64,000 nucleotides of DNA, taken from Polaribacter sp. (GTDB lineage Bacteria; Bacteroidota; Bacteroidia; Flavobacteriales; Flavobacteriaceae). Shown in pieces: positions 24,388-47,626 of the stretch; the first letter of the stretch is position 1, and each line of letters opens with the position of its first letter. Location of the stretch: positions 6,182 through 70,181 of the forward strand of contig NZ_JBDVJE010000071.1 of the NCBI RefSeq assembly GCF_039939415.1. Reading direction: 5' to 3'. Position numbers and translations under genes: made by a program. Below the pieces are notes generated by a model. That model worked only from the letters and a program-made list of their open reading frames with translations. It did no database searches and was not told the origin of the DNA.

Positions 24388-25665
24388 TTATTTTTTTCTA
24401 CTTAAAAATTTAGGCTTAATTACTAACATTGCCCAAGCCCAATTTTGAGTTCCAGCTGCTGCAGCTTCTGTAATTCCTTTTAACTCATACATTCCATCAC
24501 TAGCAAACATTTGAGAATAACCTAACACTAAAGCATAACCTTTAAATGCTTTTTTGTAAACTAAATCTATTTCTGTACCTAAAGATTTTTCTCCGCTAGC
24601 TAATGCTTGCTCTCCTCTAAAGTTTAAAGCTTTTACCATTAAACTAGAAGATTTACTTAGTTTAAAATTAGCACTTAAATGAAGGTCTACTAAACCAATA
24701 GAGTTTGCGTGATTACCAACATAGAAATAATCCATAAATCCGTTAAATTTATGATTTGTACCATATAATGGGAAAAAAGCTCCTGTTTCTCCTGCTGCTC
24801 CATCATTACCACTTATCATCTCTAAACCTAATCCCAAACCAACTTTTGGAGAAGCTTTATATGTTGCGTCTAAACCAAGTAAATAAGCACCTTTTACATC
24901 AACTGCTCCCTGACGTTTACCTGTTTGTAAATATGCATTTGCAGCAAGACCAAAAGCTCCTTCTTTATATGTTAAATGCGTACCTAAAGTTTGTAAATTA
25001 CTTACCCCATCTGCAGCACTAGCTGCGTCAAATTCTTGGAATCCATTATTTAATAATAATAAACTACCTGTCATTTTATCCCATTTTTTCTTCATATATA
25101 ACATTTGCATTGTTTTATAAGAGAAAAGTCCTGTTGTATTATATGCTGTTCCAGAAGAAATAAATCCTGTTGGGTTTGAGTAATCTTGATTAAACGCTAA
25201 TGCTACATCTAACATAAAATTATCTTTTTTATATTTGATTAAAGCAGCATCATGATTACGACCTTGTTGTGCCCAATCTAATCCTCCTAAAATTCTTTGA
25301 TCATCATATACTAATGCCTGACGACCTAATTTAGTTGTTGTATTTTCTCCTAATTTTAATTCTGCCCAGGCTTGAAATACTGCAAAAGAATTATTGGCAT
25401 CATATGGTAAAATCTGTCTGTTTTCTCCCCAAACCATAACATCTTGTAAGCTAATAAATACTTTATAAGCATCTGTAGTATAACCCGCATTTAATCTTGC
25501 TCTTGTAGAAATTCCAAAACCAGCATCTGCTCCATCTGCAATTAAATTTCCAAATCCGCTTCTATATTCTGTTCTTGGTCTAAATTCTGCATCTAATGTA
25601 AATTGTGCTTTTGCAAATTGAAAGCTAACCAATAATAGTCCTAAAATTATATGTTGTTTTTTCAT
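24388..25665 (-). CDS. Outer-membrane beta-barrel, alginate export family (probable nitrate/nitrite porin)
   Basis: Signal peptide, FRPRTEYR, KLGRQ.L.YDDQRILG, YGTNHKFNGFMDYF; last gene of ABC operon. Confidence 0.8.
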   Translation of the reverse strand: MKKQHIILGLLLVSFQFAKAQFTLDAEFRPRTEYRSGFGNLIADGADAGFGISTRARLNAGYTTDAYKVFISLQDVMVWGENRQILPYDANNSFAVFQAWAELKLGENTTTKLGRQALVYDDQRILGGLDWAQQGRNHDAALIKYKKDNFMLDVALAFNQDYSNPTGFISSGTAYNTTGLFSYKTMQMLYMKKKWDKMTGSLLLLNNGFQEFDAASAADGVSNLQTLGTHLTYKEGAFGLAANAYLQTGKRQGAVDVKGAYLLGLDATYKASPKVGLGLGLEMISGNDGAAGETGAFFPLYGTNHKFNGFMDYFYVGNHANSIGLVDLHLSANFKLSKSSSLMVKALNFRGEQALASGEKSLGTEIDLVYKKAFKGYALVLGYSQMFASDGMYELKGITEAAAAGTQNWAWAMLVIKPKFLSRKK

Positions 25666-25718
25666 GTTCTTTGTTTTTAATTTAATTTAAATAGTGGTTT
25701 ATTTTTATTTTATTTTAT

Positions 25719-26549
25719 TTAATGTTCTAAAAAATCTATTAGGTGTTTTCTGTATGTATAATAATCTTCGTGTTCTAAAACTGATTTTCTTGTTCTAGGT
25801 CTTTCAAAATTGATGTCTAAAACGTCTCCTATTTTTGCTTTAGGACCACTAGTCATCATTACTACTCTGTCTGCTAAAAAAATTGCTTCATCAACATCAT
25901 GAGTAATCATAACTGCTGTAATTTTTTCTTTATTCCATATTTCTATTAAAATATCTTGTAATTCTCCTCTTGTTAAAGAATCTAACATACCAAAAGGTTC
26001 ATCTAATAATAATACTTTTGGCTTAATAGCAAATGCTCTAGCGATACCAACTCTCTGTTGCATTCCTTGAGATAAATCACTTGCCTTTTTATGAAATGCA
26101 TCTTCTAATCCTACTTTTTGTAGATAGTATTTAGCTACATCTTCTCTTTCTTTTTTTGTTGCGTGAGGAAATACTTGATTCACCCCTAATAAAACATTTT
26201 CTAAAGAAGTCATCCAAGGCATTAAACTTGGTGATTGAAAAATAACACCTCTATCTGGTCCTGGTCCTTTAATATGCTTTCCAAGAACTGCAATATTACC
26301 ACCAGAAATAGGGTTTAACCCTGCAATCATAGAAAGCATAGTTGTTTTTCCACATCCTGAATGACCAATAATTGTTACAAATTCTTCTTTACGGATTTGA
26401 AGGTTTAAATCTTCTAAAACCACATAATCTCCTTTTGGTGTTGGATATACTTTTTTAAGGTTTTTTAGATCTAACATTACATCTTTAGAAGGAAATTTTC
26501 CGTTTTCTAACCTGTTTTTTATAATTGTATTTTCTGTTATAGTGCTCAT
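25719..26549 (-). CDS. Nitrate ABC transporter ATPase (NrtD-like); probable start 26549
   Basis: [27 protein letters not shown]. Confidence 0.9.
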
Positions 26550-26556
26550 CTTTTTT

Positions 26557-27405
26557 CTATCTAAATTGATTAACAAAATCTTTTGGCGTTAATTCTGGAA
26601 GAATAAATTCTTCTTTTGCTTCTGATCTACGCTCATTACCTATATCCATTAAATACTCAATAATTTCATTTCTAGTTTTCTTAAAATTTTCATTATCGTT
26701 CATTTCTGTCTTGTCTCTAGGACGATCAATATCTATTTTAAATTCTGGACCTAAAGTTGCATTAGGCCCAGGTTTTAATGGAATAATCCTATCAGCCATA
26801 TAGATTCCTTCATCAACATCATTAGTAATTAACAAAGCCGTTCTTTTATCTTTCCCCCAAATATTTAAGATTTCGTCTTGTAAATTTCCACGAGTTAAAG
26901 CATCTAAAGCGCCTAAAGGTTCGTCCATAATTATCATTTCTGGTTTCATTGCTAAAGCTCTTGCAACTGCAACTCTCTGACGCATACCACCAGATAATTC
27001 ATTCGGTCTTTTATTAATAGCTGGAGTTAAACTTACCATTTCTACATAATTGGCAACAATTTCATTTAATTCTAATTTACTTTTCTTTGGAAAAGCTTCT
27101 TTAACGGCCATAAAGACATTTTGACCAACCGTTAACCATGGTAGTAAAGAATAGTTTTGAAAAATTACTCCACGTTCATGACTTGTACCAATTACTGGCT
27201 TTCCTTTAAATAAAACCTCTCCACTTGTTGGTTGTAATAATCCATTAATTAGATTTACTAAAGTTGTTTTTCCACTCCCAGTAAAACCTACAATAGCAAC
27301 AAACTCTCCTTCTTCTATTTTTAAGTTAATATTTGATAAAACTTCTGTTTCATCTCCTTCTTTTCCGTAGGTTTTACAAATATTATTTAATTCTAAATAT
27401 GCCAT
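26557..27405 (-). CDS. Nitrate ABC transporter ATPase (NrtC-like)
   Basis: [27 protein letters not shown]. Confidence 0.9.
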
Positions 27406-27410
27406 TTTAT

Positions 27411-27489
27411 TATGTTTAATTGTTGAAGCGTTTAATTGGGTAATTGTTCTGTGCGATTACACAATTAAACAATTACACATTTACACATG
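27411..27489. repeat. Opposed 8-mer microrepeat arrays in permease-ATPase spacer
   Basis: ATTACACA-ATTAAACA-ATTACACA-TTTACACA (27456-27487) facing TGTTTAATTG/GTTTAATTG/GGTAATTG (27413-27446). Confidence 0.7.
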
Positions 27490-28596
27490 TTAAATTGCAT
27501 CAGTTTTATCGAATGAAACCCAATTTTGAATTGTTAACATTAATCTATCTAATAAGAAACCAATAATACCAATCACAAACATGGCAACAATTATTTTGGC
27601 ATTAGAATCATTTGCACCATTTTGGAATTCTTCCCAAACAAACAACCCTAATCCAGGGCTCTGTGCCAAAAGTTCAATTGCAATTAAAACCATCCAAGCA
27701 ACTGATAATGTGATTTTTAAACCTGTAAAAATTAATGGTAAAGATGATGGTAAAACAACTTTAAATATTTTTTGAAAAGTTCCTAATTTTAAAACTTTTG
27801 CAACATTTATATAATCTTGATCTACAGATGAAACCCCCATTGCTGTGTTTACTAAAGTTGCCCACATAGAACATAAACCAACACTTATAAAAGAAATAGT
27901 AAACGAACTATCATTAGCAGAACCAATTAGTAAAGTTTTTACAATCATAAAAACTAACAAGTACCAAACTACAGGAGATACAGGTTTAAAAATTTGAATA
28001 AACCAATTAAAAGCACTTTTTAACGTAGCACTTAGCCCTATAAAGATTCCTAAAGGAACTGCAATTAACAATGCCAACAAAAATCCTGCAAAAACAGTTT
28101 GTAAACTTCTAAAAATTTGATCTACAAAAGATGGTCTACCCGTATATACAATTGCCTCTTTACCTTCTGCAACTCTTTTTTCATTTAACGCTGCCGTTTT
28201 TTCTATAAAAGCTGCTTTATCTTCACTAATAATTTTGTGATCTCTTATTAGTGATTGAAAAGAATCCCAAACTTGAGCTGGAGATGGCAATGTATTTGGC
28301 TGACAACTAGACTCTCCTGAAGCAATACACACTTCTAAAGCGTCTGCAGCAGCTTGACCTTGATCTTTTAATGCTTTTTCAATCTTAAATTCTGCTTCAA
28401 TATTATATAAAGTTTTTGCACCTAAATGCCAAAAACCAATAAATAACAAAATTGAAGCAAGTGGCACTATTGCTTTTCTTAAAAAGTTTTTAAACTCTTC
28501 TTTCTCTAATTTCCCAGTAAAAAGATCTTTTAATGTTGTTAAAATTCCCAATCCTAAAAAATTAGAAACTTTTCCTAGTGTTAAACTTGCTTTCAT
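27490..28596 (-). CDS. Nitrate ABC transporter permease (NrtB-like)
   Basis: IQIFKPVSP, TLVNTAMGV, IFTGLKITLSVAW, GLGLFVWEEF. Confidence 0.9.
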   Translation of the reverse strand: MKASLTLGKVSNFLGLGILTTLKDLFTGKLEKEEFKNFLRKAIVPLASILLFIGFWHLGAKTLYNIEAEFKIEKALKDQGQAAADALEVCIASGESSCQPNTLPSPAQVWDSFQSLIRDHKIISEDKAAFIEKTAALNEKRVAEGKEAIVYTGRPSFVDQIFRSLQTVFAGFLLALLIAVPLGIFIGLSATLKSAFNWFIQIFKPVSPVVWYLLVFMIVKTLLIGSANDSSFTISFISVGLCSMWATLVNTAMGVSSVDQDYINVAKVLKLGTFQKIFKVVLPSSLPLIFTGLKITLSVAWMVLIAIELLAQSPGLGLFVWEEFQNGANDSNAKIIVAMFVIGIIGFLLDRLMLTIQNWVSFDKTDAI

Positions 28597-28637
28597 GTGT
28601 TTTTTATTTGTGTTACTAAATGGTCACATGCAACACC

Positions 28638-28674
28638 TAATTGATGATTTTCTTTACTTAGAAATCATCAATTA
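28638..28674. other. Intercistronic hairpin after substrate-binding gene
   Basis: TAATTGATGATTT...AAATCATCAATTA 13-bp inverted repeat without long U tract; possible mRNA stabiliser. Confidence 0.6.
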
Positions 28675-28703
28675 TCGATGTTTCATTATTACTTTTGGTA
28701 AAA

Positions 28704-30089
28704 TTATTTTTTGTCTTTATTTCCGATAGAGAAACTATTGATGTATCCAATTGGATCTTTAGCATCGTAAGTTGTACCATCTATAAAATCTGCAGTTGCT
28801 GGCTTGTAACCATCTGTGGCAGGAATGTCTGATGCAGGTATGTTTCCTTCTTCAACTAAAAGAGCTGCTGCTTTTTTCCAAATATCTGGTCTATAAATAT
28901 CTTTAATTGTATTTGCGTACCAAGCTGCTGGTTTTGCATCAGGAATTTGACCCCATCTTCTCATTTGAGTTAAAAACCAAATTCCATCAGAATAAAAAGG
29001 ATATGTTGCATTGTATTTATAGAACACATTGAAGTCTTCCATTTGTCTTTTATCACCTTTTTCAAACTCAAAAGTACCAGTCATAGAATTTGCTAAAACT
29101 TCTACAGGAGCACCAACATATTGAGACATAGATAAAATTTGTACCGCTTCTTTTCTGTTTTCTGGTTTGTCTAACCATTTACCAGCTCTAATTAATGCTT
29201 TTGTAACTGCTATTGCTGTATTTGGATTATCTTCAATAAATTTCTCTGTCATTACAAATACTTTTTCAGGATTATTTTTCCAGATGTCATAGTTTGTTAC
29301 AACAGGCACACCAATTCCTTTAAAAACTGCTTGTTGATTCCAAGGTTCACCTACACAATATCCATGAATAGTACCTGCTTCTAAAGTTGCTGGCATTTGT
29401 GGTGGTGGTGTTACAGATAATAAAACCTCAGCATCAATTTGTCCTTGTACGTTTTCTTTTGTATACATACCAGGGTTAATTCCTGCTGCAGCTAACCAAT
29501 ATCTAATTTCATAATTATGAGTTGACACTGGAAAAACCATTCCCATTTTAAAAGCTTTCCCAGAATTTTTATATTCTGTAATTACAGGCTTTAAAGCTTC
29601 TGCTTTTATTGGATGAACTGGTTTACCATCTTTATCTTTTGGTACATGTGGTTTCATTTTAGACCAAACATCGTTAGAAACTGTAATTCCATTTCCGTTT
29701 AAATCCATAGAAAAAGGAGTTACTAATTTTGCTTGACGCCCAAAACCTGCTCCTGCAGCAATTGGCTGACCTGCTAACATATGAGAACCATCTAATTGAC
29801 CATCAATAACACGGTCTAAAATATTTTTCCAATTAGATTGTGCTTCTACAGAAACAAATAACCCTTCATCTTCGAAAAAACCTTTTTCTTTAGCAATCGC
29901 CAAAGGAGCCATATCTGTTAATTTAATAAAGCCAAAAGTTAATTGAGGTTTTTCAATTTCTAATGTTTTTGTTGTTGTTGTTTTTGCTTCAACAGTTGTT
30001 GTTGTTTTTTTAGTTTCTTTACCTCCACATGCAAATAATAACATTGCTGCTGGTAAAATGTAAGTCGATTTTTTAAATAGAGATTTCAT
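28704..30089 (-). CDS. CmpA/NrtA family substrate-binding lipoprotein; probable start 30089
   Basis: Lipobox [34 protein letters not shown]. Confidence 0.92.
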
Positions 30090-30109
30090 TTGAATGGGTT
30101 TTAACAATC

Positions 30110-30125
30110 TACGTATTAATACTTA
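30110..30125. promoter_or_regulatory. 7-2-7 operator upstream of nrtA
   Basis: TACGTAT-TA-ATACTTA; minus-strand TATATTTG promoter at 30134-30141. Confidence 0.7.
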
Positions 30126-30319
30126 TTTTTTGACAAATATATACCTAGATTTAATTTTAACTTATGATATTAACCATAAACAAACCTCTTTTTAAAACAT
30201 ATTAAAAACTACTAAAAAACATATTTTAAATATAAAAAACTAAAATACAGGTAGTTGAAAAATATAAAAAACAATTATATTTTCTACGTACTTATAGATT
30301 ATAAGTATTTTTCTACGTA

Positions 30320-30357
30320 AAAAAGACCTTTCAAATTCACTTTTGAAAGGTCTTTTT
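30320..30357 (-). terminator. Terminator of heme cassette
   Basis: AAAAAGACCTTTCAAA...TTTGAAAGGTCTTTTT. Confidence 0.85.
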
Positions 30358-30410: not shown

Positions 30411-31118
30411 TTATGGATTTACAGTCTTTAACCATTCTTCTAGAGATAGTGCAGTATATTTTTTATCTGTTCCAAAAGGATCTTTTCCTCCTTTAAAATA
30501 TTCTTTTATATTTTTTAGAGAAATTGTGTCTGCTAATTTTTCTGGTACCTTATACTTATGATTTCCATGAAAATCGTGACATTGTATACAAGTAGACCAT
30601 TTTTCATTCAAAATTAAATCTTTATGAGAAATATCTAAAGGGTCATTCTCAATCTCTAGCGTTTGATGACAGTTCATACAGTAATTAACCTTATCAAGAG
30701 ATACTCTTTCTTTTTTATGTTCTGTATGACATGTAATACAGGTTGTAGCATTTATTTGTTCAATTGCTTCTTTAAACCTTGGCTCTGAAAACCTATATAC
30801 TGGATGTCTATCATTAGGTCTGTCATGGCATTGTAAACAATTATCTAGGGTAACATCTTTCGTTCCAAAATCTACATTTTTGTCTCTAGCTCCAATAGTA
30901 TAAGAAATATTAGACTGTATTTGTTGCACAAGATTTCCATTAGCATCTGCATGACAAGCAAAACATTTTAAATCTTTATGACCAGTATTCATTGGGCCAA
31001 TGGACAGATATTCTTCTGATGTATCTAGTGTTAAAACATAAATTAAAGGGATTGCTAATATTAAACCAATAATGCATCCAAAAAATTGCCTTTTACGAAG
31101 TGGACTTATTTTTAACAT
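30411..31118 (-). CDS. Membrane-anchored pentaheme cytochrome c
   Basis: N-terminal TM; five CxxCH (CFACH, CLQCH, CITCH, CMNCH, CIQCH); GPMNTGH. Confidence 0.88.
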   Translation of the reverse strand: MLKISPLRKRQFFGCIIGLILAIPLIYVLTLDTSEEYLSIGPMNTGHKDLKCFACHADANGNLVQQIQSNISYTIGARDKNVDFGTKDVTLDNCLQCHDRPNDRHPVYRFSEPRFKEAIEQINATTCITCHTEHKKERVSLDKVNYCMNCHQTLEIENDPLDISHKDLILNEKWSTCIQCHDFHGNHKYKVPEKLADTISLKNIKEYFKGGKDPFGTDKKYTALSLEEWLKTVNP

Positions 31119-31130
31119 ATAAATAATGAG

Positions 31131-32159
31131 TTAGATTTCTATAACTATCTTTTCACTTGTTGGATAACTGATACATGTAAGAACGCTTCCACTTTCTTGT
31201 TCATTTTCTGAAAGAATATGACCTTCTGTCATTTTTACCTCACCTTCTATACATTTAGCTTTACAAGTAGAACACATTCCAGACCTGCAAGAATAAGGTA
31301 AAGATATATTATGAGCCATTGCTTGTTGTAATATAGATTTATCACCTTTAAACTTTAAAGTATGCTCTTTTCCTTCAAATTTTAAAGTAACATCACTTAC
31401 AAAGTTTTTACCAGTTACTTTTACTTTTGGCATTTTAAATACCTCTAATTTAATTTGTTCTCTAGAAATATTATTTTCACTTAAAATTTCTTTAACTTTT
31501 TCCATATAACCAAAAGGTCCACAAATCCTATACACGTGATTAGTGTAGGTTAATTTATGTTTTAAAAAACACCTATCTATAAGTTCTTTTGTTGCTAATC
31601 CTGAATGATAATTTTTTTCTTCTTTTTTATTATTTGCAATAATATGTTCCACAAAAAAATTATTTGAATATTCTTTTTCTAAGTTTTTTATTTCATCATG
31701 AAAAATTATTGACGCTATGCTTTGGTTTGCGTAAATAAGTAAAATTTTAGAGTCTTTCTCTTCACTAAGAACAGATTTTATAATTGAAAACATGGGTGTT
31801 ATACCACTACCTCCAGCAAATAAAACATATTGTTTCTTTTCTTTTTTATCTAAAGAAACAAAGAAAGAACCTGCAGCTGGATCCACTGTTAAAGAATCTC
31901 CAACTTTTAAAGAATCACATAAATAATTAGAAACTAAACCATTTTCAACACGTTTAACAGTAATTTTTAAATCCTTGTCTGTATGAGGATTACTACTAAA
32001 AGAATAAGCTCTTTTATGATCTTCTTCATTTATTACTGCTTTAATTGTTAGAAACTGCCCTGGTTTGTATTTTATTTTTTTAAAAAAATTTCCGTTTTTT
32101 AAATGAATGCTTATGGCATCATTTGTTTCTTTAACTATATTTTTAACTAATAATTTCAC
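31131..32159 (-). CDS. FAD/NAD(P) reductase with C-terminal [2Fe-2S] ferredoxin (PaaE-like)
   Basis: RAYSFSS, GGSGITP, ICGP, CRSGMCSTC...C. Confidence 0.92.
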   Translation of the reverse strand: MKLLVKNIVKETNDAISIHLKNGNFFKKIKYKPGQFLTIKAVINEEDHKRAYSFSSNPHTDKDLKITVKRVENGLVSNYLCDSLKVGDSLTVDPAAGSFFVSLDKKEKKQYVLFAGGSGITPMFSIIKSVLSEEKDSKILLIYANQSIASIIFHDEIKNLEKEYSNNFFVEHIIANNKKEEKNYHSGLATKELIDRCFLKHKLTYTNHVYRICGPFGYMEKVKEILSENNISREQIKLEVFKMPKVKVTGKNFVSDVTLKFEGKEHTLKFKGDKSILQQAMAHNISLPYSCRSGMCSTCKAKCIEGEVKMTEGHILSENEQESGSVLTCISYPTSEKIVIEI

Positions 32160-32167
32160 TGCTTTCT

Positions 32168-32650
32168 TTATTTATAATAAAACACCATACTTACATGAAA
32201 CACTAACAGAAATGTAATTATTAATGATAATGCTACATGTGCTATCATCCATCCTTTAAACAAAATATCACTATTGTTTTTAAGAACATCTAAATTTAGA
32301 TACCCTAAAAGGGTATTAAATAAAAACACATATGACATCAATAACAAATAACCATACCCTAATTGTGTGCTATGTATATAGAAAAACAAAGGACTAACAG
32401 CTCCTAACCATTTATGAAGGTTTTGTATTGTTATATTATATTTTCTCCAGTTTTTTATTACTCTCGTAAAAGTGAGTAACCATTGGAACAAAATAAATGT
32501 GGCTAATAATACTCCTGACCATCTCTTATAAATTTCTTGTTGTTGCAGATGAGATAACCAACTCCAATCTAGTTTTAAGAAAAATTGCAAGAAATAGACT
32601 GTTAGTAATAGTAATCCTAATAAAGTAGATTTATTAGATTTAAATACCAT
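32168..32650 (-). CDS. 4-TM protein, predicted di-heme b (ferric-reductase-like)
   Basis: Two TM helices each with His pairs 14 apart: HKWLGAVSPLFFYIH and HVALSLIITFLLVFH. Confidence 0.65.
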   Translation of the reverse strand: MVFKSNKSTLLGLLLLTVYFLQFFLKLDWSWLSHLQQQEIYKRWSGVLLATFILFQWLLTFTRVIKNWRKYNITIQNLHKWLGAVSPLFFYIHSTQLGYGYLLLMSYVFLFNTLLGYLNLDVLKNNSDILFKGWMIAHVALSLIITFLLVFHVSMVFYYK

Positions 32651-32680
32651 AAATTTTTATACTTAAAAAGATAAATTATT

Positions 32681-33496
32681 TTATTTTTTTGCCATCAATA
32701 CCTTCATAGTAGTATAGGAAGATAATTTTTTCACACTATCTAAAAATACTTCTGGTGTTGGTAAGTAATTACCTTCTGCAGGCCATTTTTCTCCAATTTG
32801 TGGCTTTCCACTTTCTTTAAAATCATCAATTTCATCCAAATATTCTTTATAAATGTCTAAAGTACCTTCTGCATATGAATTTAATAAAGCAACCGTTTCT
32901 TTAAAACTTAAAGAATCTTTAGGATACTGCCAAGTTGTAGCTCCCATAACATCTCCCAACTTCCAATCTGATTTTGTAGTTTGTGGATGTTCATTATGAC
33001 AAGAAACACATGCTCCTGCACTTGCTAAATCAACAAACATTGCTGTGTGTAATTTTTGCTCTTCATCATAAAAAAACTGAGGCTTTTTATCTTTTTTTAT
33101 TTCCTCAAATAACTCTGCTTGTTTACCCTGAAATTTATTTGCTGCATTTACAGGAAAATCAGAACCAAGATATAACCCTAATGGAACTGGACTTTTTCTA
33201 ATACTAGATGCTACACCTCTTAAAAATAGAGCAGGAAGAGGACCCGCTTCTACATCGTCTTTTCTCCAATCTTCATCAAATTTCATTCCTTGAGCTTTCC
33301 CTTTACCAACAATTGCTTTGGTATATAATGTTCTAGTTACATCATTTTCTTTTGATACCATTTCTAAAACTTCTGCTACTGAAAAAGTGTTTTCAGATGC
33401 AGATCCTTTTGATTTTTCTTCAGGAACTCCATCACAAGAAATAAAAAAAGTAAAACTTAATATTGCTAATATGTATAATTTATTTGTAGTTTTCAT
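32681..33496 (-). CDS. c-type heme lipoprotein, Tll0287/DUF3365-like
   Basis: Lipobox ISC, GPLPALF, single CVSCH, WKLGDVMGA. Confidence 0.75.
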   Translation of the reverse strand: MKTTNKLYILAILSFTFFISCDGVPEEKSKGSASENTFSVAEVLEMVSKENDVTRTLYTKAIVGKGKAQGMKFDEDWRKDDVEAGPLPALFLRGVASSIRKSPVPLGLYLGSDFPVNAANKFQGKQAELFEEIKKDKKPQFFYDEEQKLHTAMFVDLASAGACVSCHNEHPQTTKSDWKLGDVMGATTWQYPKDSLSFKETVALLNSYAEGTLDIYKEYLDEIDDFKESGKPQIGEKWPAEGNYLPTPEVFLDSVKKLSSYTTMKVLMAKK

Positions 33497-33515
33497 AATG
33501 AATATTTTATGTTAT

Positions 33516-33929
33516 TTAATAAGATGCTCCTATCATCACACTAGACATTGTTTGGTATACACCTGCCCATGCATCTTTAACTTCAGGAGTAAAATCACCC
33601 CCTAAACCTGCTTCTAAAGTTGCTAGTAACGCAGCTCCAACTGTGCTATAATGAGATTCTTTAACATTATAACCCACATGTTTTTTTCCTAAACCTTCTA
33701 ATACAGGTATTAAAGCATCTAAATCACTTAAACCAGCAACAGCAGCTCCTAGCATCGTCATTAGTTTATTACCTTGTGTTTTCATTGCTTCTTCACCACT
33801 AGGAAATAAGGGTTTAAGTTCTGGGTCTAATTCAAATAATTTATTATAAAATATTGTTGCTGCAGTATCAGCTATGGGTCTTACTTTTTTAAATGATTCT
33901 TGTACAAGAGTAATTGTTTTTGCTTCCAT
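33516..33929 (-). CDS. Single-domain globin (flavohemoglobin/Vitreoscilla Hb-like)
   Basis: B10 Tyr (IFY), CD1 Phe (PLF), E7 Gln (TQG), F8 His (KKHV), WAGVY. Confidence 0.93.
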   Translation of the reverse strand: MEAKTITLVQESFKKVRPIADTAATIFYNKLFELDPELKPLFPSGEEAMKTQGNKLMTMLGAAVAGLSDLDALIPVLEGLGKKHVGYNVKESHYSTVGAALLATLEAGLGGDFTPEVKDAWAGVYQTMSSVMIGASY

Positions 33930-33962: not shown

Positions 33963-33978
33963 TAAGTATTAATACTTA
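33963..33978. promoter_or_regulatory. Perfect 7-2-7 operator upstream of globin
   Basis: TAAGTATTAATACTTA; minus-strand TATTTTTG at 33985-33992. Confidence 0.75.
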
Positions 33979-34088
33979 TTTAACAAAAATAAAATACTTA
34001 GAATTAAATAAGTATGTAAAAACACACCTTAAAAAAGGTTTTTACAACATATTAAAAACTATTAAATAGCAGGAAATTGAAAAAAGCA

Positions 34089-34838
34089 CTAACTATCTAA
34101 AAAGTAGTTATGTTCACTTATTTCTTTTTTAAGTAATTGTATATTATTTATACCAATTTTTTTTCCTTGAGAAATAATTAATCCTTCTTTTTTTAATGTA
34201 GAAAATATTCTGATAACTTGTTCTTCTGTAGTACCTGCATAGTCTGCATATTCTTTTCTACTTAATGGTAAGTTTAAGAAACCTCGTAAATCTCCAAATT
34301 TTCTATGAATGTACAATAAGGTATCAATTACTCTTTCACGAACTGTCATTTGAGAAATAGACTTTACTTTATTTTCACTTCTGTTAAGTTCGTTTGCATA
34401 AAACAACATCATTTCATAAGAAAACTTAGGGTTTTCTAACAATACTTTTTGTAGATGTTCTTTTGAAAAATAATATAATTCTGTGTCTTGTAAAGCAATT
34501 GCACCAATAGAATAATATTCTTGAGTTCCAAAACCTCGATGTCCAATAATTTCACAATCTTTTGCAAAACGAACTATTTGTTCTCGCCCATTTATACCAG
34601 TTCTAAAAACTTTTACAGTACCTTTTTTAATAAAAAACAAACCATTTACAGGAGCTCCTTCAATAATAAATTGTTGTCCTTTTTTGCATTTTAAAACTGT
34701 ATTTTTTGAAACCGATTCTAACAATAATTGATTACTATACCTATGTATCATACATTGGTTTTTCTTACATACTTCACACCCTAAACCTTTACTATTAGGG
34801 GTTTCTTGAGGTATTTTATGTGAATGAAATATTGCCAC
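34089..34838 (-). CDS. Crp/Fnr family regulator with N-terminal Cys cluster
   Basis: CEVCKKNQC, cNMP-binding barrel, HTH LSRKEYADYAGTTEEQVIR. Confidence 0.92.
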   Translation of the reverse strand: MAIFHSHKIPQETPNSKGLGCEVCKKNQCMIHRYSNQLLLESVSKNTVLKCKKGQQFIIEGAPVNGLFFIKKGTVKVFRTGINGREQIVRFAKDCEIIGHRGFGTQEYYSIGAIALQDTELYYFSKEHLQKVLLENPKFSYEMMLFYANELNRSENKVKSISQMTVRERVIDTLLYIHRKFGDLRGFLNLPLSRKEYADYAGTTEEQVIRIFSTLKKEGLIISQGKKIGINNIQLLKKEISEHNYFLDS

Positions 34839-34839
34839 T

Positions 34840-36279
34840 TTAAAGTTCTTTTTGTAATACTACTTTCTCAAAACTAGTTTTTGGAGCCTCACAAAGCGAA
34901 CACACGTAATTCTCTGGTAATTCATTAAAAATGGTTTCTGGTGCAATGCCTTGAGTAATATCTCCAAAAGCTTCATCGTAAATTGTTAAACAATCTTTAC
35001 ATTGATACACTTCTAATTCTGTGGTTTCTTTATTTACAAAAGCTTCTTTTTCCGCTTCTTTTTCACTCCCTAATTGATCAAAATATAATTGACTTAACTC
35101 CATTAACAATCCTGGTAATTCTACTTTATCTACGTCTTGAACGTGCATAATGTATTTTCTTGTATTTGGATCAAAATCTTTTGCATACAATAAATTATAA
35201 GTGTCTCTAGTTTGAAAATTACCAATCTTTTCTGGTTGTTTATTTTTTTCTACAACTATTGATGTAAAATAATGAGCAGACTTACTGTAGTTTGTAATTC
35301 CGAATGTTAAACCATAGGTACTAATATCATTTTGATCGAAGTTAGAAACCAAATATTTCTTTAAATTTAAAGCGTCTTTATTTGCCACAGGAATATGCCA
35401 GTTTAACTCTAACATAGAATGACGAACGTTAATACCTCTTTTACCTAAAAATTTTTCCCAAACCAATTTAGACTCTTTTGGAATTCCTTTTACAACAAAA
35501 GATTTCCAAGGAGTAATAGATATTTTACCAATCTTATTTTCAGAACACAATTCGCACATTTCTTTTAAGAAAGAAATATCGTATTTATTGTTTCTCCAAT
35601 ACAAACCTAACCAGTATTTATCTATTCCTATTTTGTTCATACCTTCAAAATATGGAAAAGGATAAAAAGGTACATCTAAAGGCTTGTCTACAGTTCTATT
35701 ATTGGTATCAATTGCATCATTTACCAAATCAAAAATCATTTCTACAGTTTCTGGCTCCTCTTGCAGTATGTTTTCTATTGCTGTTTCTACCTTTCCTAAA
35801 TCCCAACTATAAATTAAAGCAGGATACATTTGAGTTTTTCTCCATTCTGGAAGTCTTACATACAAATACCAATAATCTTCATGCTCTGAAGCAATAAAGT
35901 TTATATTACCAGTAAATAGAGGTACCAAACGTTGTTTGGGATCTATTAGGTTTATTTTTAATTTCGATTTTTGACGAAATTGTTCTAACAAATACAAGTA
36001 TCTATCTCCTGTTAACCAAGAAGTACTTGGAAAAATATCTGCACAAACATAAGAGGAAACTATGTTCTCTACACCTATTTCATCTGCTTCTACAATTTTT
36101 AATTTATCGAACTTTGCAAGATCTTCTTTTTTTGCTTTTTCTGATAATAAAATATCTTGTCTAGAGCCAAAAGAGATGGTTTTTAAACCTAAACTTTCTA
36201 CAGATTCACAAATATAATTTAGCTCTCCTGGAGATAAAACTCCGCCTTTTACAATCAATCTATTTAGTTGCTTACTCAT
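34840..36279 (-). CDS. Nitrite/sulfite-reductase ferredoxin-like domains fused to C-terminal rubredoxin
   Basis: GGVLSPGEL..FGSRQDI N-terminus; YQCKDCLTIYD...CSLCEAPK. Confidence 0.8.
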   Translation of the reverse strand: MSKQLNRLIVKGGVLSPGELNYICESVESLGLKTISFGSRQDILLSEKAKKEDLAKFDKLKIVEADEIGVENIVSSYVCADIFPSTSWLTGDRYLYLLEQFRQKSKLKINLIDPKQRLVPLFTGNINFIASEHEDYWYLYVRLPEWRKTQMYPALIYSWDLGKVETAIENILQEEPETVEMIFDLVNDAIDTNNRTVDKPLDVPFYPFPYFEGMNKIGIDKYWLGLYWRNNKYDISFLKEMCELCSENKIGKISITPWKSFVVKGIPKESKLVWEKFLGKRGINVRHSMLELNWHIPVANKDALNLKKYLVSNFDQNDISTYGLTFGITNYSKSAHYFTSIVVEKNKQPEKIGNFQTRDTYNLLYAKDFDPNTRKYIMHVQDVDKVELPGLLMELSQLYFDQLGSEKEAEKEAFVNKETTELEVYQCKDCLTIYDEAFGDITQGIAPETIFNELPENYVCSLCEAPKTSFEKVVLQKEL

Positions 36280-41379: not shown

Positions 41380-41395
41380 TAAGTATAAATACTTA
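41380..41395. promoter_or_regulatory. 7-2-7 operator upstream of narK
   Basis: TAAGTAT-AA-ATACTTA; extra ATACGTAT at 41412-41419. Confidence 0.75.
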
Positions 41396-44069: not shown

Positions 44070-44654
44070 TTAAGAAATTGCTTTTTTTACTAAAGCTAAA
44101 CTTTTATCAGAAAAAGGAAGTGTTAATGCAGCTTTATGACCTTTTTTAGACATTTTTATCCAGGTTTTTTTTAAAATATCAATTACCTTTTCATCTGTAT
44201 GTTTTGCGGCAAACTCTTCGAAATAGTAATCTAAAAAAACCAAGCAAATAGTATCTTCTAAAGCTTGTGCTTCTTCATTCTTTTTTAGTAGTTTTTTTAA
44301 TATAATTTTCTGAACTCTTTCTACAAATTGATTATCAAAACCTACTTGTTCTAAAATTTCTCCAGTAATTTTTGCGTGCATTTTTTTTAATTCTTCACGC
44401 CATTTTAAATACCCAACTCTATCCATTGGATATTCATTTCTTGCAATTTTCCAACGACAAATATGTTGTGCTCTTGCTGCAACTTGCAATGCTTTAGATG
44501 CATTTGGCTCAAATTGCAATAACTTTCTTGTCATTCTTTGAGAATACAGCAATTCTTTAGGGTATGCTATATCTGCTACTTGATATGTGGTTGTGTCTTC
44601 AGCATTTTTCTGATCAATAATTGCAATTGCAGTTTCAAATCTTGTTGGCTTCAT
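44070..44654 (-). CDS. DUF4202-like protein
   Basis: AARAQHICRW, GYLKWR, LEDTICLVFL; typical of nitrate clusters. Confidence 0.8.
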   Translation of the reverse strand: MKPTRFETAIAIIDQKNAEDTTTYQVADIAYPKELLYSQRMTRKLLQFEPNASKALQVAARAQHICRWKIARNEYPMDRVGYLKWREELKKMHAKITGEILEQVGFDNQFVERVQKIILKKLLKKNEEAQALEDTICLVFLDYYFEEFAAKHTDEKVIDILKKTWIKMSKKGHKAALTLPFSDKSLALVKKAIS

Positions 44655-47610: not shown

Positions 47611-47626
47611 TACGTATTATTACTTA
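47611..47626. promoter_or_regulatory. 7-2-7 operator upstream of nirB
   Basis: TACGTAT-TA-TTACTTA overlapping minus-strand TAGTTTTG (47605-47612); extra half-site 47589-47595. Confidence 0.7.

Follow-up and report, generated by a model that had tools for sequence, protein, structure and literature searches.

A five-gene globin and multihaem cassette in flavobacterial nitrate clusters with a predicted electron-export module

Nitrate assimilation can come with its own defence against nitric oxide (NO). In the Bradyrhizobium nrtABC-narK-bjgb-flp-nasC operon, Bjgb and Flp detoxify NO made from nitrite by the assimilatory nitrate reductase encoded in the same operon (PMC4724949). A comparable arrangement occurs in the window studied here, a 64,000-nucleotide stretch of the Polaribacter sp. 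contig NZ_JBDVJE010000071.1, in which five minus-strand genes at 30411-33929 encode a globin, a Tll0287/DUF3365 Cache-haem lipoprotein, a four-His membrane protein, an NAD(P)H:FAD reductase and a pentahaem cytochrome c. These five tightly packed open reading frames, reported in the original prediction, were all recovered, with intergenic gaps of 19, 30, 8 and 12 nt from globin to pentahaem gene. The electron-export architecture of the cassette is well supported, and we infer that NO is the substrate of the chain.

A scan for the Cache-haem gene, with one genome per species, found 192 carriers, of which the best 80 were analysed together with two loci fetched separately. As in Bradyrhizobium, a nitrate assimilation and transport cluster contains genes for a single-domain globin and an NAD(P)H flavoprotein, both in the window and in 79 of these 82 loci. 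The Bradyrhizobium genes are also co-induced with their nitrate cluster, through NasS-NasT and not a palindromic operator. In Flp, which also feeds NasC, no [2Fe-2S] ferredoxin domain like that of the cassette reductase is described, and the Bradyrhizobium system has no membrane di-haem protein, multihaem cytochrome or Cache-haem protein. In the literature on globins in flavobacterial nitrate clusters, only the Bradyrhizobium work was relevant. The earlier view that the cassette lies outside canonical nas clusters holds in part: it is an optional extra in nitrate clusters, but a globin-plus-flavoprotein NO system in a nitrate operon has this precedent.

The electron-export module and its described counterparts

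Cytoplasmic reducing power reaches the bacterial periplasm mainly through quinones. To our knowledge, the few quinone-independent cases, such as NOX-type enzymes and Fre-MsrQ, use the ferric-reductase fold. Four of the cassette proteins appear to offer another route. Within the cassette, the reductase (31131..32159, minus strand, 342 aa) combines FAD_binding_6 (PF00970), NAD_binding_1 (PF00175) and a C-terminal plant-type Fer2 domain (PF00111), with an invariant [2Fe-2S] pattern, C291-x4-C296-x2-C299-x29-C329, and conserved RxYS, GGSGITP and CGP motifs. As judged from these domains and the four invariant cluster Cys, which bear out the predicted FAD/NAD reductase with [2Fe-2S], it is an FNR-like enzyme with a plant-type ferredoxin domain of the PaaE/Hcr class, scoring below both equivalog cut-offs (PaaE TIGR02160, 247.9 vs 420.8 bits; Hcr NF007964, 176.3 vs 383).

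The adjacent membrane protein (32168..32650, minus strand, 160 aa) is predicted to be a di-haem-b trans-membrane wire. Its two His-x13-His pairs, H79/H93 and H138/H152, are conserved in 100% of 83 flavobacterial sequences. A profile of the protein retrieved 359 clusters (50% identity) from 1.8 billion representative proteins, a family for which there is no Pfam model. Each of the four His is retained in 97-100% of the 145 representatives of these clusters that were aligned. One further representative, P0130, is a 7,048-aa protein with three short stretches matching the profile, probably a low-complexity or repeat artefact. The His pairs had been foreseen correctly in a protein described as having four trans-membrane helices; the helix count has to be revised, as the AlphaFold2 (AF2) model, with a predicted local distance difference test score (pLDDT) of 79, has five long helices, with H79 and H93 on helix 3 and H138 and H152 on helix 5. 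In longer relatives of this protein, a cytoplasmic reductase immediately precedes helix 1, which places the N-terminus of the membrane domain inside the cell. Together with basic loops after helices 2 and 4 of the model, this would put H79/H138 near the cytoplasmic face and H93/H152 near the periplasmic one, as expected of a wire with two haems.

This design recalls NOX, FRE, SpNOX, CsNOX5 and Fre-MsrQ-MsrP, where an FNR-type dehydrogenase is likewise coupled to a membrane domain in which two helices carry two His pairs. In the cassette the pairs are also about 13 residues apart, and the FNR-type NAD(P)H dehydrogenase is encoded by the adjacent gene and fused in longer relatives. The shared arrangement is suited to stacking two b-haems and moving electrons outwards without quinones. 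Unlike NOX and MsrQ, however, the cassette protein has five helices instead of six, and neither its sequence nor its fold gives a significant match. Ferric_reduct (PF01794), a family suggested for checking at the outset, stayed below its gathering score (17.1 vs 28 bits, E = 0.006, residues 106-159 only). A six-helix NOX/STEAP/MsrQ-type fold was not found with Foldseek, where the best E-value against the PDB was 2.3 and no cytochrome was among the matches, and an alignment profile of the protein found no relative among PDB sequences. DUF4405 gave a weak match (8e-5) in one relative. The protein would resemble a NOX or MsrQ membrane domain in its working, yet cannot be filed as one.

The pentahaem cytochrome (30411..31118, minus strand, 235 aa) has c3/c7/MtrC-like Pfam matches, an N-terminal membrane anchor and five CXXCH motifs, all invariant as the prediction of a pentahaem cytochrome c had implied. 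Six further invariant His are enough for five bis-His haems. Like NapC/NirT/NrfH and DmsE/MtrA, it joins an N-terminal anchor to closely spaced CXXCH motifs and bis-His ligation in an electron-wire design. Unlike them, it has five haems, shows marginal similarity and is probably fed by a b-haem protein and not by quinol. Its match to the DmsE model TIGR03508 reached 40.6 bits against a cut-off of 192, and its similarity to NrfH (2J7A, E = 0.044 over 38 residues) falls short of membership in the NapC/NirT/NrfH family.

Gene fusions outside the Flavobacteriaceae tie these parts together. About a quarter of the listed members of the membrane-protein family are longer proteins, and in all 20 tested FAD_binding_6 precedes the membrane domain; NAD_binding_1 is present in nearly all of them and a BFD [2Fe-2S] domain in most. 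NirB-type fusions were sought among the top relatives and none was found, the 20 tested all being FNR-type. The membrane domain is C-terminal in each of these 20, the reverse of the domain order in NOX, as the reductase is N-terminal. Downstream of the fusion genes come those for pentahaem orthologues (37-44% identity, all haem residues kept) and for Cache-haem orthologues with 40-46% identity over the full length. A second architecture joins a reductase of this kind to the pentahaem cytochrome by way of a membrane anchor. The fusion of the reductase to either membrane partner, and the supply of [2Fe-2S] from unrelated domains (Fer2 here, BFD-like elsewhere), are the best grounds for regarding the four proteins as one trans-membrane electron-transfer complex, in which an obligatory one-electron step between flavin and haem would be built in. 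A trans-membrane redox chain from cytoplasmic NAD(P)H to periplasmic c-haems, proposed for the window beforehand, is strongly backed by both kinds of fusion. Unlike in NOX and MsrQ, [2Fe-2S] is inserted in the path and the acceptor is a c-haem chain, not O2 or MsrP.

Many of the reductase fusions begin with one or two cNMP-binding domains (P0126, P0173, P0209, P0239 and P0253; L159:221-3028), some of the fused membrane proteins having two, and electron export may accordingly be under allosteric control in these cases, as judged from domain content. The Crp/Fnr regulator encoded beside the cassette in the Flavobacteriaceae has a domain of this type as well.

The breadth of the module was also seen in metagenomes. 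A scan seeded with a distant Cache-haem alignment gave more than 411 relatives, from which 80 loci were kept, spanning 28-71% guanine-cytosine content, and sample names included soil, rhizosphere and sediment metagenomes. In these 80 loci, the Cache-haem gene lies beside the pentahaem and membrane-protein genes wherever the flanks allow. Five soil loci carry truncated haemoglobins alongside the module. When 149 neighbours of non-flavobacterial modules were tallied by Pfam family, none was enriched apart from a few truncated globins, and tblastn around non-flavobacterial FNR-type modules found no nrtA, nasA or nirB. For want of such neighbours outside the Flavobacteriaceae, a general nitrate link of the FNR-type core was rejected. 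The core module thus exists without the globin and outside nitrate loci in other phyla, and the flavobacterial cassette appears to be a split, FNR/ferredoxin-type, pentahaem variant of an undescribed module family.

The Cache-haem protein (32681..33496, minus strand, 271 aa) would stand at the periplasmic end. The prediction of a Tll0287-like c-haem lipoprotein is upheld by a PF11845 match (31.9 bits, cut-off 24.1), an invariant lipobox Cys21 and a single CVSCH c-haem site, formed by C163, C166 and H167, which is kept in 100% of 83 sequences and also in distant orthologues. Like Tll0287, GSU0582/GSU0935 and the P. azotoformans CHH receptor, it is an extracytoplasmic PF11845 protein with an invariant CXXCH, and its stand-alone architecture resembles Cluster 1 of a preprint on Cache-haem domains (bioRxiv 10.64898/2026.02.01.703092). 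The mature protein has Cys only at the lipid anchor and in CXXCH, so a Tll0287-type Cys axial ligand, and with it Cys/His ligation, is not found. From conservation, H170, M153 and M184, all invariant, are candidate distal ligands. Unlike the known Cache-haem proteins, the cassette member has neither this Cys ligand nor a signalling domain, and it has a conserved C-terminal extension of about 75 residues. Identity across genera is 70-89% and close relatives number more than 1,100. An alignment profile run against PDB sequences gave nothing relevant, the solved Cache-haem members included. The cassette protein is always encoded with the pentahaem cytochrome and the four-His membrane protein, a gene context that is not described in the available portions of the Tll0287/DUF3365 literature, the Cache-haem preprint included.

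One locus pairs the Cache-haem protein differently. At L089:7006-11239, genes for a Ser/Thr kinase and a Roadblock/LC7 protein come after those for a 330-aa Cache-haem protein and a four-His membrane protein. The arrangement is reminiscent of the Cache-haem receptor-kinase pairing in a 2026 preprint, a hint that the pair may also serve in signalling.

The globin (33516..33929, minus strand, 137 aa) is the fifth component. It matches PF00042 (68.1 bits, cut-off 22), and its closest solved relatives are the M. infernorum Hell's Gate globin I (HGbI; 3S1I, 4e-24), neuroglobin, Vitreoscilla haemoglobin (1.7e-16) and Hmp. Alignment to 3S1I places Tyr-B10 at Y28, Gln-E7 at Q52 and His-F8 at H84, residues conserved in at least 97% of 80 globin sequences, so the single-domain globin with Tyr-B10/Gln-E7 is as first described. 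Globin and reductase together reproduce the domain content of flavohaemoglobin, another part of the original prediction that holds: residues 3-136 of the Hmp model NF009805, its N-terminal part, match the globin (1e-23), and residues 159-393 match the reductase (1e-42). As two separate proteins, they score 83.9 and 146.4 bits against a cut-off of 432 and fall outside Hmp membership. Like Hmp, the cassette globin keeps Tyr-B10, Gln-E7 and His-F8. Unlike Hmp, globin and reductase are encoded two genes apart, and the reductase, with its extra [2Fe-2S] domain, is closer to PaaE and Hcr. By its sequence, the globin is of the flavohaemoglobin type, single-domain and cytoplasmic.

Conservation and regulation in flavobacterial nitrate clusters

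All named carriers among the analysed loci belong to the Flavobacteriaceae. In 82/82 loci the genes stand in the order Cache-haem, membrane protein, reductase, pentahaem, and the globin gene lies directly upstream of the Cache-haem gene in 79, with the cofactor residues invariant, which answers the proposed synteny check in favour of co-conservation. The globin slot varies in the remainder: a 121-aa truncated haemoglobin (PF01152) occupies it in two loci (L068:451-816 and L078:9480-9845), and in L083 the slot upstream of the Cache-haem gene is empty. Truncated and flavohaemoglobin-type globins both include members known as NO dioxygenases. That two unrelated globin types with such members fill one slot argues that a globin activity belongs to the unit.

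A Crp/Fnr gene stands upstream of the globin in 77 of the 82 loci, and nrtABCD lies within 10 kb downstream of the cassette in 69. To place these figures in the family, 301 Flavobacteriaceae genomes (300 genera) were screened for the membrane protein and nrtA. The membrane protein was found in 20 of 50 nrtA-positive genomes vs none of 251 nrtA-negative ones (p = 6e-18), and in none of 400 other Bacteroidota genomes sampled. The cassette is accordingly present in about 6-7% of the Flavobacteriaceae genera sampled, each represented by one genome. In 24 other species of the window's genus it was not found. Two of these species, and one from another family, have the Crp/Fnr gene directly before nrtA, so the cassette is an optional insert between the regulator gene and nrtA. 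For the same reason, the Crp/Fnr gene was rejected as a cassette member.

The position of the cassette relative to other nitrogen-oxide genes also varies. In about 25 loci it lies directly downstream of a napA cluster, and 11 of them place it also after nrfHA and ccsBA. The Nap cluster directly upstream of Crp/Fnr and the cassette at L004:2357-8485, for example, encodes NapA, two small c-type cytochromes, a DsrO-like iron-sulfur (FeS) protein and a DsrP/NrfD-like membrane protein. Matching FeS and NrfD-type genes lie upstream in about 24 loci besides L004, and 11 loci insert nrfHA and a fused ResB-CcsA in between. A different order is seen at L161:1194-15262, which runs crp, nrtABCD, porin, Cache-haem, membrane protein, pentahaem, narL-like, nasA; L162 and L165 have the full cassette in the same place, between porin and nasA.

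The cassette has a promoter and operator of its own, as had been claimed for the window: a Bacteroidota-type -7 box, TATTTTTG (33984-33991, minus strand), directly precedes the perfect 16-bp palindrome TAAGTATTAATACTTA (33963-33978, minus strand). In 73 of 79 loci, the palindrome is found some 50 nt before the globin start. Within the window, further copies precede nrtA (30110-30125), narK (41380-41395) and nirB (47611-47626), so the palindrome fronts four units, globin, nrtA, narK-nasA and nirBD. This sharing of a nitrate-regulon palindrome makes co-regulation with nitrate assimilation likely. In addition, a 22-nt block, AGTTTTTAATATGTTGTAAAAA (34039..34060, minus strand), recurs in the nrtA promoter (30189-30210), two matches being found vs 0.08 expected and the copies being identical bar one K position. 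The block sits about 75 nt upstream of the palindromes at the nrtA and globin promoters and aligns with the nrtA promoters of cassette-less relatives, and one promoter layout is common to globin and nrtA of the window and to nrtA of these relatives. A short hairpin, perhaps the crp terminator, overlaps the block in relatives, and the block is possibly the tail of a crp terminator plus an upstream promoter or regulator site.

At the other end, the claimed terminator downstream of the pentahaem gene (30320..30357, minus strand) proved to be a strong intrinsic hairpin (-20.3 kcal/mol, z = -6.0), with none of 200 shuffles equally stable; a simple terminator scan missed it. A terminator-like site inside the Cache-haem gene (33248-33230) was discounted, as such sites occur at chance level.

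Several neighbouring genes complete the cluster. The Crp/Fnr-family regulator gene (34089..34838, minus strand) belongs to the nitrate cluster and not to the cassette. Its Cys21-x2-Cys24-x4-Cys29 and Cys51, kept in 97-100% of 77 sequences, form an Fnr-like pattern, and an O2- or NO-sensitive iron-sulfur cluster could be held there. Immediately downstream of the cassette lie nrtABCD, encoding a nitrate ABC transporter, and an Alginate_exp-type porin gene (24388..30107, minus strand). On the other side, a gene at 34840-36279 overlaps the nasA stop and is followed after 1 nt by the Crp/Fnr gene. Its 479-aa product combines a nitrite/sulfite-reductase ferredoxin-like half domain with a rubredoxin at the C-terminus, and the gene is conserved beside nasA in at least 12 loci. 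Further away, a DUF4202 gene (44070-44654) stands between nirD and a NarX-like kinase gene, the same place being occupied in Maribacter, Zobellia and related loci.

Candidate roles of the cassette

The role that we consider to have about an even chance of being correct is that the cassette removes NO, or a close nitrogen oxide, in two compartments during nitrate use. Electrons would pass from NAD(P)H through FAD to the [2Fe-2S] of the cytoplasmic reductase, a quinone-independent export route, and then via two b-haems of the five-helix membrane protein, ligated by H79 and H138 near the cytoplasm and by H93 and H152 near the periplasm. They would continue over the five bis-His c-haems of the membrane-anchored cytochrome and finish at the one c-haem of the lipid-anchored Cache-haem protein, which is probably where ligands react. 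The same reductase is the most likely electron donor of the cytoplasmic globin, which would act as an NO dioxygenase, so that NO or a close nitrogen oxide formed from nitrite might be removed by the globin in the cytoplasm and by the Cache-haem protein in the periplasm. Haem b binding, the direction of electron flow, the sharing of the reductase and induction by nitrate are all presumed in this scheme.

NO removal is favoured because two globin families recur, the cassette is restricted to nitrate users within the family, the operator is that of the nitrate regulon, and Nap and Nrf genes adjoin many copies. Cache-haem domains with a signalling role bind NO in the ferrous state and are rapidly autoxidised in O2 (bioRxiv 10.64898/2026.02.01.703092, 10.64898/2026.05.25.727664). 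By analogy, a dedicated reductive supply would make sense for such a haem in an oxic periplasm. A bolder form of this proposal, which we regard as possible but doubtful, is that the four proteins are an unrecognised, widespread quinone-independent NAD(P)H electron exporter built on a new di-haem-b fold, with the terminal Cache-haem protein as a new periplasmic NO-converting enzyme, either an NO reductase or an NO dioxygenase whose nitrate would be recaptured by NrtABCD.

Several observations weigh against NO removal. As 60% of nrtA-positive genomes do without the cassette, it is dispensable for nitrate assimilation. In the window's genome, no NapA, NrfA, NirK, clade II NosZ or second globin was found and its enzymes are assimilatory only, so internal NO would arise only from side reactions. 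L161 has neither reductase nor globin and keeps the other three cassette genes. The sole stand-alone Cache-haem protein studied, from P. putida and with Cys/His ligation, behaved as a redox protein, with no sign of being an NO binder. No known di-haem protein matches the membrane protein in fold or sequence, and the AF2 model of the Cache-haem protein, built from 18 close homologues, has a pLDDT of 44, too poor for fold comparison. Finally, non-flavobacterial FNR-type modules have no nitrate neighbours, so the general role of the core need not concern nitrogen oxides.

This last point is the starting place of the main rival, which is rather unlikely in our estimate: a general electron exporter serving a periplasmic acceptor other than NO, such as O2 (through NOX-like superoxide formation or O2 scavenging), nitrite, hydroxylamine, ferric iron or another oxidant. 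The flavobacterial link to nitrate would then reflect a local need, for example the protection of nitrate or nitrite handling. The occurrence of the core in many lineages without nitrate genes nearby fits such a role, as do the cNMP-binding domains on some reductases, which point to a regulated enzyme, and the superoxide that autoxidising Cache-haem proteins make in vitro (bioRxiv 10.64898/2026.02.01.703092). It accounts poorly for the recurrence of the module with two unrelated globin types, the strict limitation of the cassette to nrtA-positive genomes within the family and its nitrate-regulon operator, and NO binding is the sole ligand chemistry so far shown for Cache-haem domains. The next most likely rival, and an unlikely one, is that the chain keeps a periplasmic Cache-haem NO sensor ferrous under air, with a regulatory output. 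NO binding needs ferrous haem and the cofactor autoxidises quickly (bioRxiv 10.64898/2026.05.25.727664), and the Cache-haem/membrane-protein pair of L089 adjoins a Ser/Thr kinase and a Roadblock protein. Yet the flavobacterial protein has a lipid anchor only, with no signalling domain or transmembrane output, four dedicated redox proteins would be a heavy investment for one reduced haem, and the 70-89% identity across genera suggests enzyme-like constraint.

Two further explanations concern the globin. It might be an O2 buffer or carrier like Vitreoscilla haemoglobin, induced at low oxygen by the adjacent Fnr-like regulator and with no NO role. The presence of Vitreoscilla haemoglobin among the solved relatives and the Fnr-like Cys cluster of the upstream regulator speak for it; we consider it very unlikely, as the regulator gene is part of the nitrate cluster in cassette-less genomes too, a truncated haemoglobin can replace the globin, and the cassette is limited to nitrate-using genomes. 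Least probable of all is that only globin and reductase cooperate, as a split NO dioxygenase similar to Bjgb-Flp, with the three membrane and periplasmic genes as unrelated neighbours. Such a pair would reproduce the flavohaemoglobin domain content, and its joint absence from L161, where the other three genes remain, is in line with it. However, the four non-globin genes are inseparable in 82/82 loci, and in other phyla the reductase is fused to the membrane domain or the pentahaem cytochrome.

If the electron-export reading is correct, the module would represent a second, structurally unrelated solution for quinone-independent electron export, present in hundreds of metagenomic loci. It would also supply a concrete partner set for stand-alone Cache-haem proteins, which make up about half of the family, with its more than 5,000 curated (about 20,000 retrieved) members. 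For the Flavobacteriaceae, the idea from Bradyrhizobium that nitrate assimilation carries its own NO defence would be extended to marine, algae-associated Bacteroidota, with a bearing on nitrogen-oxide turnover in coastal waters.

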